The notes under the pieces are model-generated. The model did no database searches. It saw only the letters and a list, made by a program, of their open reading frames with translations, and had not been told where the DNA came from. From a virus (lineage: Duplodnaviria > Caudoviricetes), in the IMG/VR virus record IMGVR_UViG_3300037418_002260, positions 3,987-67,986 of that record: a stretch of 64,000 nt of DNA; one strand, written 5' to 3'. Of the stretch, positions 13,960 to 61,872 are shown piece by piece. Made by a program: the position numbers and the translations under genes. Positions within the stretch are counted from its first letter, which is position 1. Every line of letters starts with the position of its first letter.

Positions 13960-14349
13960 TTAGCCGATGTTCGCTTCGGCGTTGTCGGCGTTCTCGCCGT
14001 TGCCAGCTTCGCCATTCTCGGCGTTCTCGCCGTTGCCAGCTTCGCCGCCTTCGGCACCGTTACCGGCCTCGCCGTTGCCAGCTTCGCCGCCAGTGGCAGC
14101 CGGAGTCTGCGTCGCAGCGGCGCGACGGCCACGGCCACCAGTGGGCTTCGACGGGGCGGGCGTTTCGGCCGCGGCCTTATTCGCCTGCATCTTTTCATGC
14201 AGGAGAAGCTCGGCCTCGGTCGGCTCGCGAACCGCCTCAAGCCGCTGGAGGTCAGCAAGCTGCTCCTCGCTGGCCGGCGTGAAAATCGTGCCGGGAAGAA
14301 TCGTGCCGTCGATGCGCTGCGTCGCAACGACCGGAGAAAGAGTGCTCAT
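13960..14349 (-). CDS. Capsid-associated protein with low-complexity GEAGNGE repeats
   Basis: Gene after the capsid gene; acidic repeated C-terminal tail ending in IG. Confidence 0.65.
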   Translation of the reverse strand: MSTLSPVVATQRIDGTILPGTIFTPASEEQLADLQRLEAVREPTEAELLLHEKMQANKAAAETPAPSKPTGGRGRRAAATQTPAATGGEAGNGEAGNGAEGGEAGNGENAENGEAGNGENADNAEANIG

Positions 14350-14374
14350 TCAACACCTCGTTGGTTGGGAAAGA

Positions 14375-14402
14375 TGCCCGGCGGGAAGCTGAACCCGCCG
14401 GG
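14375..14402 (-). terminator. GC-rich hairpin downstream of the capsid gene (probable terminator or processing stem)
   Basis: GCCCGGCGGG-aagctgaa-CCCGCCGGGC 10-bp perfect stem; weak U tract on the minus strand. Confidence 0.5.
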
Positions 14403-14420
14403 CGAAAGTCTCACCGCCGC

Positions 14421-15518
14421 TTACGCGATCGGCGTCAGCTTGTAGGTGCCGTTCGGGTTAATCGGCACCATGATGGGAGCCGACTCGAACGACAGGTGCT
14501 CGACCTTCACGCGATCGCCCTTGAGGTAGTTCTTCGGGAAGATCGGGAGGGCCTGGTACTCGGCGTCGCGGTCCTGAATCATGCCGAAGCACTCGAAACC
14601 GTTGATGGTCTCGGGCGTCGACAGGAACACCATCTCGTTGTTGCCAACGTAACGGACCTGCGTGCCATCGTCGGCTTCGTAGGCTTCGTTGTTGACGAAC
14701 AGCTCGATGACCTGGCCGGAACCGCCGCCGATTTGCAGCTCGCCGACCTTGTACCGCTTCGAGCGGTCGCCCGAGGTGACGACACCGCGCTCGATGGTCA
14801 GACCACCGACCGGACGGAACTTGTCAAGGTTGTCCTTGATTTCCTGGTCCTTGCGGATGACGCCCCAAACGCCGCCGCCCATCTCGACCTGAACCGGCAG
14901 ACCGCCGAACTCAGCGTCGTTCATGGTATCGACGATCGCCTGGAACTTGTCGTACACCGACACGCCAGCGTCGCCGAAGCGGTTGCCGGCCGTCAGAACC
15001 TCGGTGTGGCCCGCGTCACGCTGGAAATCGACGAGCACGGAATCGCCGTCCTCGTAATTGCAGGTGACCTTGCCGTCGATGAGCGCCTTGGCGCGCATCC
15101 ACTCCCACCGGCGCTCGACCGCGTCCATTGCGTCGACCGTCATGGCGACCTTGATGAGCTCAAGGCGCTGCATCGGCGACAGCTTGTTCGGGTCGAACAT
15201 CGACTGGTCGATGCCCGGCTGATAGGTCAGGGGGCGCTTCGGGTCGACCGCCTCGTCGATGACGACATTGGCGGGCTTGAAGCGCATTCCCTTGGCCTTG
15301 TCGGTATAGATACCGCGGCCCTGGCCCATCGGCTTGACGAACGGGGCGAGGCGACGCGACTTGATCGGCAGCTTCTCGAAGTCGATCCATTCGTCGGTCG
15401 AACGGAGTCCACTGGTGAAGAAGCGGCTGAAAGGCCGCGGTTCGGGACGGGTATCGCGCATCGCTCCGAGCGAGGTGCGACTGTCCCACAGATTGTAAGC
15501 GGTGACAGGGGAAGTCAT
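14421..15518 (-). CDS. Major capsid protein (lambda gpE family)
   Basis: 365 aa after the decoration gene; IDFEKL...RLAPFVKPMGQG and FKPANV motifs. Confidence 0.9.
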   Translation of the reverse strand: MTSPVTAYNLWDSRTSLGAMRDTRPEPRPFSRFFTSGLRSTDEWIDFEKLPIKSRRLAPFVKPMGQGRGIYTDKAKGMRFKPANVVIDEAVDPKRPLTYQPGIDQSMFDPNKLSPMQRLELIKVAMTVDAMDAVERRWEWMRAKALIDGKVTCNYEDGDSVLVDFQRDAGHTEVLTAGNRFGDAGVSVYDKFQAIVDTMNDAEFGGLPVQVEMGGGVWGVIRKDQEIKDNLDKFRPVGGLTIERGVVTSGDRSKRYKVGELQIGGGSGQVIELFVNNEAYEADDGTQVRYVGNNEMVFLSTPETINGFECFGMIQDRDAEYQALPIFPKNYLKGDRVKVEHLSFESAPIMVPINPNGTYKLTPIA

Positions 15519-15551
15519 TGCTTTGGCTGTCCTTTCTAGCCGAGTTGCCGG

Positions 15552-59564: not shown

Positions 59565-59902
59565 ACATCGGCGCGCCCTTCCCGCCCGACCTTCCCGACC
59601 TGCTGCGCCTCGCGTGCGGCCAAGGGAAGCTGCGGCTGAACGTCTGGTTCGGCGCCGAGAAGGGCCATCAGGCCAACCTCGCGAACTCGGGGCAGGGTTG
59701 GACGGTCGAGTACGACCGCGACTGCCTCGAGGCCATCACGAGGGTTCTGCGCGTCCGCTACGGCCCGATGCTCGAGCGGATGCGTGCCGGCGCCTCTGAG
59801 CGCGCCGCGTCGGATGCGGTGCATATCGCGCACAAGGAGTCCGACTACGTCGACCGCTGCGAGGACACCGCCGACGACGACCTCCTGGGACTCATCGGAT
59901 GA
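59561..59902 (+). CDS. Hypothetical protein
   Basis: Coupled; ends DDDLLGLIG. Confidence 0.65.
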   Translation: MNIGAPFPPDLPDLLRLACGQGKLRLNVWFGAEKGHQANLANSGQGWTVEYDRDCLEAITRVLRVRYGPMLERMRAGASERAASDAVHIAHKESDYVDRCEDTADDDLLGLIG

Positions 59903-60384
59903 TGCCCCGCAGCGACCTCAAGGAGGCTTTCGACGACCTCGACCAGGAACTGACTCCGATGGAGGAGGACTGCCCGTGCGGCTCCCATGATCCGTTCGAG
60001 CGGTGCTGCTACCTCGCCGCCCACATCGAGGAGGTCGAGGAGGAACTGCTTCACCTGTTCCGCCGCCATCCGGTGACGTCGCACATCAGCGAGCTTGAGA
60101 CCATCCAACTCGTCGAAGCGGCCAGTGAACTCATCTGGCCGATGACGCGCCAGCCGATGCACGGTGACCCCGAACCGGAAGGCGACGAGGTCACCCGCGC
60201 GGAGCTGTACGCCGTTGCCGACCGCTTCCGCGGGGAGTCGGTCGAGACAGGCTACTGCATGTGCGGTTCGCCAGTCGACGTCCATACTTGGGGCGATGGC
60301 CACTCGCCGGTCGATGAAGGTCTCTACCGCGCCGAGCAGCAGCGCTTGGCCGAAGAAATTGACCTCGAGGCGCTCATCGGATGA
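59899..60384 (+). CDS. Hypothetical protein
   Basis: CPCGS and CMCGS..H motifs; ends EIDLEALIG. Confidence 0.65.
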   Translation: MMPRSDLKEAFDDLDQELTPMEEDCPCGSHDPFERCCYLAAHIEEVEEELLHLFRRHPVTSHISELETIQLVEAASELIWPMTRQPMHGDPEPEGDEVTRAELYAVADRFRGESVETGYCMCGSPVDVHTWGDGHSPVDEGLYRAEQQRLAEEIDLEALIG

Positions 60385-61019
60385 GCGAGGTTCTCGACAT
60401 CGAGGCGCTTATCGGCGGCGCCGCTCCGGCCGGCGCGCCAGGTGGAACGGGCTTCGGCCACGAGAAGCCGTGGGATGGCGAGACCGTCGAATGGTACACG
60501 CCGCCGTCGATATTCGCCGAGCTCGGTCTCGAGTTCGACCTAGACCCGTGCGCGCCGCAGGGTGGTCTGCCGTGGATTCCCGCCAAGCAATTCTACTCGA
60601 AGCCGGACAACGGCCTCGATCTGCCGTGGCCGGTCGGCGGACGCATCTGGTGCAACCCGCCCTACGGTCCTGAGACAAAGAAATGGCTCCGCCGCATGGG
60701 CCAGCACCGCCGCGGCCTGGCCCTCGTGTTCGCGCGCACCGACACCGAATGGTTCCACGAAACCGCGGCGACTGCTGACGCAATCCTGCTCATCGCGGGG
60801 CGCCTCAGCTTTGTCGACGAGACCGGCGAGCCGCCCGTCACGCGCGATTCAAAGACTGGCCGGAAGCGCAAGTCGGGCGCCGGCGCAGGCTCAATGCTCG
60901 TCGCGTGGGGCGCCGACTGCGTCGCTGCGCTCGAGCGCATGAACTCCAACCCGCACGGGCAACACCGCGGCCTCCTGGTCCCGTTCCCGCGCGACGACAT
61001 CCAGGAGCTTATCGGATGA
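60381..61019 (+). CDS. Phage DNA N6-adenine methyltransferase (Dam-like, PF05869 type)
   Basis: WYTPP...FDLDPCA...NGL..PW...IWCNPPYG...LVFARTDTEWFH. Confidence 0.88.
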   Translation: MSEVLDIEALIGGAAPAGAPGGTGFGHEKPWDGETVEWYTPPSIFAELGLEFDLDPCAPQGGLPWIPAKQFYSKPDNGLDLPWPVGGRIWCNPPYGPETKKWLRRMGQHRRGLALVFARTDTEWFHETAATADAILLIAGRLSFVDETGEPPVTRDSKTGRKRKSGAGAGSMLVAWGADCVAALERMNSNPHGQHRGLLVPFPRDDIQELIG

Positions 61020-61267
61020 CAGAACTGCCTATCCTCAACTGGTTCGGATGGCTCGGCTTCGCCGGGCTGATGGCCTTCTACTGGATGATCGGAAGCGGTC
61101 GCCCGATGAAGGCGTACCTGGCCAGCACCTTCGGCGCCGCCATGTTTCTCATCATCGGCATCGCAAGCCACTACGGCTACGCGGCGCATCTGCCGTCGCT
61201 GTCGGTGATGGAAGCCTGCATCATCGTGCTGAACGTCCGCGCGATGTGGAAGCTGAGGCAGGGATGA
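61016..61267 (+). CDS. Small multi-TM membrane protein
   Basis: Three hydrophobic segments; coupled. Confidence 0.6.
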   Translation: MTELPILNWFGWLGFAGLMAFYWMIGSGRPMKAYLASTFGAAMFLIIGIASHYGYAAHLPSLSVMEACIIVLNVRAMWKLRQG

Positions 61268-61872
61268 CTCAGTCGCTCCCGACCGGACCGTTCGGCTGCA
61301 TCCTCGCAGATCCGCCGTGGGCTTGGGTGAGCTACGGCGGCAAGGCCAGCGCGCCGCACCGCACCGAAGAAGCGCCCTACAACGTGATGAGCATGGACGA
61401 GCTGCGCGCTCTGCCCGTGGCGGACGTCGCGGCAAAGGACTGCGTCCTCCATATGTGGGTCATCGGCAGCCACCTCGACCAGGCGATTGAGCTCGGTCGC
61501 CATTGGGGCTTCGCCTTCAAGAGCGACGGCCTCGTTTGGGTGAAAACCGGAAAGAACGACCCCGCCGTGCGGCCGATCAGCATGGGTAAGTGGTTCCGGA
61601 AGCAGGTCGAGTACAGCCTCCTGTTCACCCGCGGGAAGCCGTCACGGCTCGACGCTGGCGTTCGGCAGCTCCTCGAGACCGGCGACAATGTCATCTATGA
61701 GCCGCGGCGCGAGCACAGCCGCAAGCCGGACGCGCAGTACGAGCGCATCCAGCGCCTCAGCGAAGGCCCGTTCCTCGAGATGTTCGCGCGCAACCGCCGC
61801 GACGGTTGGGAAGCGTGGGGCAACGAGGTCGACAAGTTTCTGCCGGATCCGCTGCTGGAGCTAATCGGATGA
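61264..61872 (+). CDS. MT-A70 family methyltransferase
   Basis: ILADPPW...YNVMS.DEL.ALPVADVAAKDCVLHMW...WVK...HSRKP...LEMFARN.RDGW..WGNE. Confidence 0.9.
   Translation: MTQSLPTGPFGCILADPPWAWVSYGGKASAPHRTEEAPYNVMSMDELRALPVADVAAKDCVLHMWVIGSHLDQAIELGRHWGFAFKSDGLVWVKTGKNDPAVRPISMGKWFRKQVEYSLLFTRGKPSRLDAGVRQLLETGDNVIYEPRREHSRKPDAQYERIQRLSEGPFLEMFARNRRDGWEAWGNEVDKFLPDPLLELIG

Follow-up and report, generated by a model that had tools for sequence, protein, structure and literature searches.

Why should about one-fifth of the proteins of a 68-kb temperate phage bear one and the same acidic, hydrophobic peptide, seven residues long with Ile-Gly at its end? The phage, which probably infects a member of the Caulobacteraceae, was analyzed over a stretch of 64,000 nucleotides (the window). 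At the C terminus, the tag has the form acidic-x-x-hydrophobic-Ile-Gly-stop and occurs on 13 solid open reading frames (ORFs) and one conserved nested ORF; all 14 termini listed in an initial annotation of this DNA are present in the sequence and are given below with their genes. Four further copies lie at the N termini of the small terminase subunit (TerS), the portal, and Dam and in a linker of the primase. At least 16 phage proteins bear the tag, on ends or linkers that are disordered. [quoted passage not shown] The annotation described the carriers as enriched in DNA-acting enzymes, and most of the identified ones do act on DNA.

The tag is strongly enriched over chance

About 89 genes of this composition (Ile, 4.5%; Gly, 8.5%) should yield 0.34 IG termini by chance, and 13 to 14 are observed. 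With a conservative gene call that keeps only 10 IG termini, the binomial P value is 2.6 × 10−12; set against 5 IG ends in 1,501 background genes, taken from 60 phage loci whose MT-A70 genes are more distant, the same call gives a Fisher P value of 4 × 10−10. No or one hydrophobic-hydrophobic-Gly ending, mostly nonacidic, is found in 55 of these 60 loci. The pattern [DE][ILVFM]xx[LIVM][ILV]G occurs 5 times at C termini (0.01 in shuffled proteins) and 14 times at any position (2.2 in shuffled proteins). The excess noted in the annotation is real and far beyond chance. Other IG-ending ORFs, at 39865, 51203, and 62471, were left out of the gene set for want of a gene-like GC3 pattern or because of their very short length.

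Carriers and their orthologues

We compared the phage (G000) with six tagged relatives that were retrieved in full (G001, G002, and G004 to G007), of which G002 is a 62%-related phage. On the minus strand, directly after the major capsid gene and in the position of lambda gpFI, a 129-aa protein (13960..14349) with a low-complexity G/E/N/A linker ends in NAEANIG (13963-13983; DAEAAIG in G002). The 621-aa C5 cytosine DNA methyltransferase (24256..26121, minus; PF00145) ends in PFRELIG (24259-24279), and its G002 counterpart ends in PFRALIG, with Leu and Gly encoded by other codons. Nested out of frame within this gene is a candidate gene of 228 aa (25245..25931, minus) ending in DLDSLIG (25248-25268). 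Its stop falls on a promoter-like ACTCACTAA-N-GTTGA motif, and its GC3 is 0.73 versus 0.59 for the main frame of the same region. Since the counterpart in G002 is also open and ends in EFDSLIG, the nested ORF stays a possible carrier despite the promoter-like motif.

Also on the minus strand, the 85-aa AlpA-type excisionase/regulator (26118..26375; PF05930, phrog_66) ends in DEFGLIG (26121-26141), with ELEGLIG in G002 and DFMGALG in G004. The 408-aa tyrosine integrase (26574..27800, minus; Pfam match) ends in ELARIIG (26577-26597), followed by a terminator-like sequence and no coupled gene; the ends are EFARLIG in G002 and PFLDMLG in G004, and the Gly-stop codons are GGA TAA in G000 versus GGG TGA in G002. 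A VRR-NUC-like endonuclease of 128 aa (29287..29673, minus; phrog_93, phrog_5702) ends in EQALLIG (29290-29310), spelled ATA GGG TGA in its last codons, with EETLIG in G002 and NPLNVIG in G005. A 198-aa protein with no family match (35761..36357, minus) ends in SEFDGIG (35764-35784).

The plus strand carries the remainder of the C-terminal tags outside the SSB. The 827-aa primase-polymerase/VapE-type primase-helicase (36842..39325; Pfam match) ends in EEIDVIG (39302-39322) and has a second copy, DIDALIG, in an acidic linker (37853-37873); linker copies in relatives are three DDLLG in G001, DDIIG and DAIIG in G002, and FETLLG in G004. Three plus-strand proteins without known function follow: one of 150 aa (54508..54960) ending in DFMELIG (54937-54957; DIMALIG in G002, DFMEMLG in G004, DDFEEFL in G006), one of 113 aa (59561..59902) ending in DLLGLIG (59879-59899), with a GC3 of 0.89 counted from the GTG start at 59561, and one of 161 aa (59899..60384) ending in DLEALIG (60361-60381). 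The 212-aa Dam-family N6-adenine methyltransferase (60381..61019, plus; PF05869) has two copies, DIEALIG near its N terminus (60396-60416) and DIQELIG at its C terminus (60996-61016); Dam of G002 ends in IKELVG. The MT-A70 family methyltransferase (61264..61872, plus; PF05063), which probably starts at 61264 to give 202 aa, ends in PLLELIG (61849-61869). Its 120 closest homologues include 35 ending in LG, 19 in IG, 11 in LL, and 10 in LA, and some bear tandem tag copies.

The annotation had called four copies internal. This is correct for the primase linker; those of TerS, portal, and Dam are N terminal (residues 6 to 13), when the ATGA/TGATG-coupled starts are used, and lie in extensions outside the PHROG domains. 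The portal gene (17369..19159, minus), whose start is coupled to the gpW stop, encodes EIDALIG (19121-19141) within a 50-residue extension that precedes the portal domain, the phrog_21 match beginning at residue 51. TerS (23555..24256, minus), whose start overlaps the C5 methyltransferase stop, carries MSDDDDIAALIGG (24221-24241), and its phrog_141 match begins at residue 49.

Selection acts on the protein, and spelling shifts in concert

Across 11 G000/G002 orthologue pairs, the last two residues are identical at 21 of 22 positions, even though 6 of the codons have changed synonymously. At position −3, 7 of 11 pairs agree, with a different codon in all 7, and stop codons differ in 4 of 11. 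Positions −12 to −8 are identical at only 15 of 55. Selection is on the protein, not the DNA, as the annotation had proposed from codon usage. For one pair, the SSB and the 198-aa protein, whose tips are identical in DNA over 18 nt, gene conversion is possible.

Each genome spells the tag its own way: LIG/IIG in G000 and G002, DDLLG in G001, DxFxxMLG in G004, DPMAGVLG in G005, DDFExFL in G006, and DFxD[VI]LG in G007. L018 has FEDILG on five adjacent genes plus two variant tails (...DPLEDI and ...DPLDDL), and L019 has DPLGxVLG. Within a genome, the spelling shifts in concert across the same orthologue families, with C-terminal, N-terminal, and linker copies alike. The N termini of the portal (DIDALIG in G002, EIQDLLG in G001, FEEMLG in G004, DDFDALL in G006) and of TerS (DIDTIIG, DDDDDLLG, DDFEAMLG, and DDFDDFL, in the same order) follow suit. 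That carriers of one genome have a spelling in common points to one shared reader. The tails of some related clades vary more, with DFDF, DLLD, and LIGDLL side by side in a single genome, and recognition may therefore be loose and mostly electrostatic. Orthologue conservation through synonymous changes, genome-specific spellings, and the N-terminal and linker copies give much better support than before to the phage-wide short linear motif inferred in the annotation. The near-matches once listed for TerL, the tape measure protein, and gpW are not the tag; in relatives, their versions deviate from the spelling of the genome.

The tag is the tip of the SSB tail

The phage encodes a T7-type SSB of the DUF2815/Enc34 family (33395..34096, minus; 233 aa; PF10991), and its C-terminal tip, SDFDGIG (33398-33418), is the same peptide as the tag. 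Residues 191 to 233 form a disordered acidic tail: AlphaFold2 models the core with confidence and the tail at pLDDT below 50, with the tail not docked onto its own core. Tails of DUF2815 proteins end in the same range of spellings; among 120 SSB homologues, the ends are DDLLG, FDGIG, DDFDF, DDDLL, or DFG. In about 13 genomes, and in at least six distinct spellings, the tip of the SSB matches or nearly matches that of the 198-aa protein.

The phage also encodes a 646-aa family-B-like DNA polymerase (31394..33334, minus; phrog_1252), for which a profile search matched family-B polymerases in the PDB. It is found at 43 to 65% identity in all six fully fetched relatives, which have the polymerase/DUF2800/SSB/primase module in common. 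The polymerase ends in W-x-hydrophobic-A-A, and the tag is absent from it in every relative examined. We detected no gp45, PCNA, or DnaN homologue and no clamp-like or peptide-binding domain in the phage.

Comparison with known docking tails

In T7, gp4 and gp2.5 use their acidic tails to bind gp5 and further proteins of the replisome (PMC12593628; PMC10359462), and in crystals DUF2815 and gp2.5 tails pack into the OB-fold groove of a neighbor (PMC5686142). The phage resembles T7 in its SSB fold family, in disordered acidic tails with a hydrophobic tip on both SSB and primase-helicase, and, as we infer, in using the tail for protein docking; T7 tails bind basic patches of gp5. Unlike the terminal Phe of T7, the phage tip is hydrophobic-hydrophobic-Gly; it is also N terminal and in linkers, and its carriers number at least 16, among them methyltransferases, integrase, excisionase, terminase, and portal. 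The phage polymerase is family-B-like, whereas that of T7 is family A, and the reader in the phage is only a candidate.

T4 gp43, gp33, gp55, and a ligase loop share LDFLF(G) and bind the gp45 clamp (PMC6212786; PMC2988020). These peptides of T4/RB69 (...SLDFLFG-COOH in gp43, LDFLFD in ligase) are likewise amphipathic, acidic-hydrophobic, common to several unrelated proteins, and C terminal or in an internal loop; gp43's also ends in Gly, and copies are interchangeable between carriers. The differences are that no gp45/PCNA/DnaN homologue was detected in the phage and that its carriers are far more numerous and functionally wider. Beta-clamp motifs (QL[SD]LF, QLxLxL) are also short linear motifs on N termini, loops, or C termini of many DNA enzymes, but the phage consensus is acidic, lacks Gln, and differs in spacing, with a genome-specific spelling. 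The tip of bacterial SSB, D-D-D-I-P-F, is a hub signal in DNA metabolism. It too joins an acidic tail and hydrophobic tip to a disordered linker (PMC5686142), but there one carrier has many readers, whereas the phage has many carriers and presumably one reader. The tag is best read as an enlargement of the scheme seen in the T7 gp2.5/gp4 tails and the clamp-client tails of T4.

A docking motif and its alternatives

The tag is probably a short linear docking motif like the SSB tip, with a candidate reader in the conserved replication module of the phage. An acidic run followed by hydrophobic-x-x-hydrophobic-Ile-Gly would probably form a one- to two-turn amphipathic helix with a glycine cap. We propose that through it, unrelated proteins that handle DNA can occupy the very site at which the SSB tail is read. 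In this way, replication, modification, recombination, and packaging would be gathered on phage DNA as it replicates. The reader would most likely belong to the replication module. T7 offers an analogy, in that its gp5 binds the acidic tails of gp2.5 and gp4, and on that basis the leading candidate is the untagged family-B-like polymerase; the SSB OB-fold groove comes second. A polymerase is not, however, an obvious docking site for integrase, excisionase, portal, and terminase.

Of the three functions floated in the annotation, namely, a degron, SSB-tail-like docking, and a localization signal, docking fits best, because the tag is the tip of the phage's own SSB tail and the same is seen in SSB relatives. 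A host hub could instead be the reader, whether the beta sliding clamp, another DNA-bound platform, or a polar or nucleoid organizer of the alphaproteobacterial host. The tag behaves like a clamp-client motif, being short, placed at N termini, loops, or C termini, and sometimes repeated; it resembles the T4 LDFLFG tail in form, no phage clamp was found, and the phage has other host cell cycle look-alikes (GapR, a DnaA domain IV-like protein, CtrA-like proteins). We nevertheless consider this unlikely. The beta-clamp-binding register is QL[SD]LF/QLxLxL, which the Gln-free tag does not match, and the Enc34 SSB ends in ...DEDEV, as read from a cloning primer. Spelling differs sharply among related phages (LIG, DDLLG, DDFEDFL, DPMAGVLG), which is hard to square with a highly conserved host pocket. 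Slightly less likely again is a DNA mimic acting in cis, in which each acidic tail folds onto its own DNA-binding surface and gates binding, with no common reader. Every carrier with known function does bind or handle DNA, and the tails of T7 gp2.5 and Enc34 SSB compete with or modulate DNA binding; but unrelated folds would not be expected to converge on a single hydrophobic register with its glycine cap or to change spelling in concert, and AlphaFold2 shows no cis docking for the SSB.

A degron or adaptor-binding signal, as floated in the annotation, fits poorly and is improbable, because the tag is on a stoichiometric SSB and is also N terminal and internal; under this reading, early phage proteins would be delivered on schedule to a protease of the host or the phage. 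In its favor, proteases classically recognize hydrophobic peptides at C termini, integrase, excisionase, and methyltransferases are among many carriers with early or regulatory roles, and some homologues end in ...LLA or ...LA. However, SSB, primase, portal, and terminase must persist, SSB-family tails of this kind are interaction modules, and the tag is acidic, unlike known ssrA-type and Lon degrons. We give least credence to a nucleic acid feature that merely reads ...E-L-I-G-stop, either a Shine-Dalgarno, spacer, and ATGA coupling cassette or a recombination junction. Seven G000 tails do read ...ATC GGA TGA, most of them overlapped by a downstream ATG, some have GGAG or GAGGA about 8 to 9 nt upstream, and the nested ORF end coincides with the promoter-like motif. 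Yet Leu is CTA, CTC, CTT, CTG, or TTG, Gly is GGA, GGC, GGG, or GGT, stops are TGA or TAA, and G002 mostly uses GGC TGA; the integrase and SSB tails have no coupled gene downstream, and N-terminal and linker copies are not at gene junctions. Residues kept through synonymous changes between G000 and G002 largely refute such a feature.

If the docking reading is true, proteins of replication, methylation, integration, and packaging would all be tied to one hub in this phage.

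A shared Ile-Gly terminus

A mechanical scan of the window found 17 open reading frames (ORFs) that end in Ile-Gly-stop. Of these, 13 are solid genes and one is an ORF nested out of frame within the C5 methyltransferase gene, against 0.34 expected from composition in about 89 genes, which bears out the shared C-terminal tag proposed in the initial annotation. We discarded the other three, none of which is called as a gene: their GC3 pattern is not coding-like, or they are very short. Tabulating C-termini against shuffled proteins and other phages, as had been suggested, revealed enrichment. 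The seven-residue pattern [DE][ILVFM]xx[LIVM][ILV]G occurs at 5 C-termini (0.01 in shuffled proteins) and 14 times anywhere in the proteins (2.2 in shuffled proteins), and the background of Ile-Gly termini in 60 phage loci with more distant MT-A70 genes is 5 in 1,501 genes. The endings of TerL, the tape-measure protein and gpW, listed earlier as near-matches, turned out to be family-specific, and we rejected them as variants of the tag.

Ala-Ala is likewise over-represented as a C-terminal dipeptide in the window (8 genes). In several cases the gene ends in GCA TGA and an ATG overlaps the stop, so ATGA start-stop coupling seems to account for part of this enrichment, which sets it apart from the Ile-Gly tag.

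Selection on the protein

Seven tails read ATC GGA TGA, mostly with a downstream ATG overlapping, and GGAG or GAGGA lies about 8 to 9 nt upstream of some tails. The tag could therefore be a nucleic acid signal, such as a translational-coupling cassette or a junction repeat, that merely reads as a peptide. We obtained two complete relatives of about 68.5 kb and compared codons in 11 orthologue pairs between the phage of the window (G000) and one relative, G002, whose primase is 62% identical to that of the window and whose orthologues terminate in IG or VG. The final two residues are identical at 21 of 22 positions despite six synonymous codon changes. Position -3 is identical in 7 of the 11 pairs, each time with a different codon, and the stop codon differs in 4 of 11; positions -12 to -8 are identical at only 15 of 55. 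[quoted passage not shown] In G002, most tails are GGC TGA, which cannot overlap ATG. Based on this codon evidence, we rejected both DNA-level readings as extremely improbable and conclude that the tag is a protein feature, not a DNA feature. Protein-level selection, claimed in the initial annotation, is borne out by the retention of the last residues through synonymous and stop-codon changes.

The tag is not confined to C-termini. The small terminase subunit (TerS) and portal genes start with an ATG overlapping the upstream stop, and the motif lies at residues 6 to 13 of TerS, portal and Dam, all with coupled starts (MSDDDDIAALIGG, MSTGDPEIDALIGP and MSEVLDIEALIGG). These N-terminal copies sit within extensions of about 50 residues ahead of the PHROG domain matches. 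The primase has an additional copy in an acidic interdomain linker. The copies once described as internal are present, then, and the primase copy is indeed in a linker, but the other three are N-terminal.

Each genome has its own spelling

The survey took in seven relatives with complete or near-complete genomes, plus more than 30 other loci. Carriers within one genome have a common version of the tag, or spelling, which differs from that of other genomes. It is LIG or IIG in G000 and G002, and in other related phage genomes it is DDLLG (G001), D-P/D-F-x-x-MLG (G004), DPMAGVLG (G005), DDFE[ED]FL, with no Gly (G006), and DFxD[VI]LG (G007). Of two further loci, L018 has FEDILG on five adjacent small genes plus two variant tails (DPLEDI and DPLDDL), and L019 has DPLGxVLG. 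Orthologues of MT-A70, integrase, AlpA, a 150-aa protein, SSB and a 198-aa protein (35761-36357, minus strand) all follow the spelling of the resident genome. So do the N-terminal copies in portal and TerS and the linker copies in primase: the G001 primase linker contains DDLLG three times, the N-termini of portal and TerS are MSATFEEMLG and MTDDFEAMLG in G004, and they are MTDDFDALL and MSDDFDDFL in G006. Across nine families, almost every G000 and G002 carrier has Ile before the Gly (the one Val is that of G002 Dam), and almost every G001 and G004 carrier has Leu there. Orthologues also gain and lose tags; the primase C-terminus and the VRR-NUC protein, for example, are tagged in some genomes only. 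Such gain and loss is typical of the evolution of short linear motifs.

We see the same pattern in a large group of alphaproteobacterial phages and prophages that carry a DUF2800/DUF2815/polymerase module. In 55 of the 60 loci whose MT-A70 genes are more distant, hydrophobic-hydrophobic-Gly endings number zero or one and are mostly nonacidic. The spelling is the most informative result of this analysis. Since it changes in concert across unrelated proteins and positions, these sequences are best explained by one shared, coevolving partner, or reader. Tip sequences change frequently, in some cases between phages that are nearly identical (DDFDF and DLLDF), and the polymerase and nuclease trees are not fully congruent; for these reasons we dropped a column-by-spelling covariation search for the reader.

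The tag is the tip of the SSB

The SSB (33395-34096, minus strand) matches PF10991 with an E value of 2.9e-19, placing it in the T7 gp2.5/DUF2815 OB-fold family. In the AlphaFold2 model, the core has a pLDDT above 90, and residues 191 to 233 fall below 50, a disordered tail that ends ...DDFDDLDDDDSF-(linker)-DSDFDGIG. The 120 closest SSB homologues terminate in DDLLG, FDGIG, DDFDF, DDDLL or DFG, which is the range of the genome-wide tags. The primase ends in EEIDVIG and has DIDALIG in its linker, and these co-change in relatives with the SSB tip, DFDGIG. The SSB and the adjacent 198-aa protein have matching or near-matching tips in about 13 genomes, with at least six spellings. From these comparisons we conclude that the tag is the SSB tip. 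The earlier likening to an SSB tail stands in this respect and in the predicted disorder of the tail; docking itself is a proposal made by analogy.

The 646-aa polymerase (31394-33334, minus strand) has no Pfam match, family A included, and its profile matches family B polymerases in the PDB (1s5j at 3.7e-10, Pol alpha and Pol II). It is present with the rest of the module in all six fully fetched tagged relatives (G001, G002 and G004 to G007) at 43 to 65% identity, and it is untagged in all relatives examined. Its orthologues retain a distinctive nonacidic C-terminus, W-x-hydrophobic-A-A (LIQAIAA, WWALAA, WAMAA and similar). The DUF2800 nuclease (34147-35349, minus strand) ends ...MFDDLDD, and in most genomes its orthologues terminate in [DE]xF[DE]DLD independent of the tag spelling. 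The same element, DDFDDLDDDDSF, lies in the SSB tail upstream of the tip, and it seems to represent another acidic motif, shared by these proteins and less variable than the tag.

Candidate readers of the tag

By analogy with known replisomes, we propose that this is an SSB-tip-like docking tag, whose reader probably belongs to the phage replication module. The first candidate for the reader would be the polymerase, and the second would be the SSB groove. A polymerase that is conserved and never tagged would be compatible with this role. The peptides might instead be read by a host hub, which we consider unlikely, or the tails might mimic DNA in cis, a quite unlikely arrangement given that the full-length AlphaFold2 model of the SSB has no docking of the tail onto its own core. 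A degron, suggested in the initial annotation, would require a free C-terminus (ssrA-like LAA or MuA-like), yet conserved copies of the motif also occur at N-termini and within a linker, and we regard this explanation as very unlikely.

No clamp family was matched by Pfam or PHROGs among the window proteins scanned, and the same searches on ten mid-size orphans found no sliding clamp or peptide-binding hub. Two orphans of about 250 aa (45899-46651 and 47181-47930, both plus strand) have no Pfam or PHROG match and only low-confidence Atlas models; each is preceded by a strong ACTCACTAA-GGGAG leader. A 241-aa protein (28444-29169, minus strand) conserved in the replication module has a model with a pLDDT of 92, consisting of a CI-like helix-turn-helix (HTH) and an alpha/beta domain with weak Foldseek similarity to PD-(D/E)XK nucleases (I-Ssp6803I, Hjc and EcoRV). 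We dropped it as a hub candidate. Presence/absence profiling did not point to a reader. GapR was found in both tagged and untagged loci. Every tagged locus sampled has a MazG-like pyrophosphatase gene (51807-52505, plus strand) and no untagged MT-A70 locus does, which probably reflects phylogeny only. This protein and its orthologues share a conserved end, ...NR-x-x-GGK-x-[FY].

The phage, its host and the nested ORF

The window covers bases 3987 to 67986 of a 67,986-bp IMG/VR record rated complete; its GC content is about 63%, and no tRNA genes were found in it. It encodes a lambda-like packaging and head module (TerS, TerL, gpW-like adaptor, portal, SppA-type protease and capsid), an integrase and AlpA excisionase, and a replication module with the DUF2800 nuclease, the DUF2815/Enc34 T7-type SSB, the polymerase, an SNF2 helicase, a VRR-NUC-like nuclease and a primase-polymerase/VapE primase-helicase. 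Four DNA methyltransferases were confirmed (C5, N6_N4, Dam and MT-A70), and the regulators are GapR, DnaA-domain-IV-like and CtrA-like proteins. A megablast search with 25 kb of the window gave no match to GenBank phages. Among bacterial genomes, the closest TerL relatives come from Caulobacteraceae MAGs, and homologues of the tagged proteins are present in Novosphingobium, Sphingomonas, Sphingopyxis, Mesorhizobium and Agrobacterium genomes. Because of these relatives, we take the host to be an alphaproteobacterium, probably of the Caulobacteraceae.

Many early genes are preceded by the motif ACTCACTAA, at 12411, 41543, 44731, 45003, 45912, 47155 and 58904 and, on the minus strand, at 19441, 25261, 35755, 36420 and 51445. 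It is followed either by an A-rich stretch, GGGAG and ATG (leader/Shine-Dalgarno type) or by N3-4 and TTGA (-35-like type).

The nested ORF (25245-25931, minus strand) and its G002 counterpart (65684-66295, minus strand) are both open. Both end in the tag, DLDSLIG in the window and EFDSLIG in G002. GC3 is 0.73 in the nested ORF, higher than the 0.59 of the main frame across this region, and divergence is lowered over part of the overlap. On the other hand, the nested ORF ends on a promoter-like ACTCACTAA motif that lies within the C5 methyltransferase gene. In G002 the methyltransferase frame is split into two overlapping ORFs. On this sequence evidence, the nested ORF is ambiguous as a tag carrier.

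Relation to known docking systems

In T7, gp4 and gp2.5 use their acidic tails to contact replisome proteins, the polymerase among them, and the gp4 tail contacts two basic patches of gp5 (PMC12593628, PMC10359462). In crystals of DUF2815 and gp2.5, the tail occupies the OB-fold groove of a neighboring molecule (PMC5686142). In T4, an acidic-hydrophobic peptide common to gp43 (...EKASLDFLFG), gp33, gp55 and a ligase loop forms an amphipathic helix on the gp45 clamp; it functions internally or C-terminally and is interchangeable between carriers (PMC6212786, PMC2988020).

As in T7, the window SSB belongs to the gp2.5/DUF2815 family and has a disordered acidic C-terminal tail, and the primase-helicase carries the same tip as the SSB. 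Unlike that of T7, the polymerase is family B-like rather than family A with a thioredoxin-binding domain bearing basic patches. The consensus, [DE]-hydrophobic-x-x-[LIV]-I-G, also differs from the peptides of clamp clients (QL[SD]LF, QLxLxL, QxxLxxFF and LDFLF), with T4 LDFLFG alike in general form only, and no clamp was found among the window proteins scanned. Because the polymerase is family B-like and no clamp was found among those proteins, the tag does not appear to be a member of the T7 or T4 system. Unlike in both, it has at least 16 carriers, including integration, modification and packaging proteins. Shared acidic tails are well established for two T7 proteins and for three or four T4 clamp clients. 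By analogy, then, the tag would resemble the T7 and T4 docking systems in its working and differ from them in scale and scope.

In the literature searched, we came across no account of a comparable proteome-wide tag. New here are the codon-level test, the N-terminal and linker copies that follow the spelling, the finding that tag and SSB tip are identical throughout the SSB family, and the family B-like character of the polymerase. We tentatively suggest that the tag could be a fast-evolving, phage-encoded interaction code, in which one phage protein, or a complex such as a polymerase/SSB-coated fork, would read a private peptide on nearly every DNA-touching enzyme. Replication, antirestriction methylation, integration and excision, and packaging might then be joined in one factory, with a spelling for each lineage that would possibly avoid cross talk with coinfecting relatives or prophages.

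The tag extends the shared-tail principle to about one-fifth of a phage proteome. Its carriers outside the replisome include methyltransferases, integrase, excisionase, terminase and portal, and its spelling shifts jointly from one relative to the next. If there is a single reader, the system would provide a set of portable orthogonal peptide-receptor pairs and allow orphan phage genes to be assigned to DNA factory roles from sequence only. It would also give a simple, testable wiring diagram that couples replication, DNA modification, recombination and packaging in a temperate phage.
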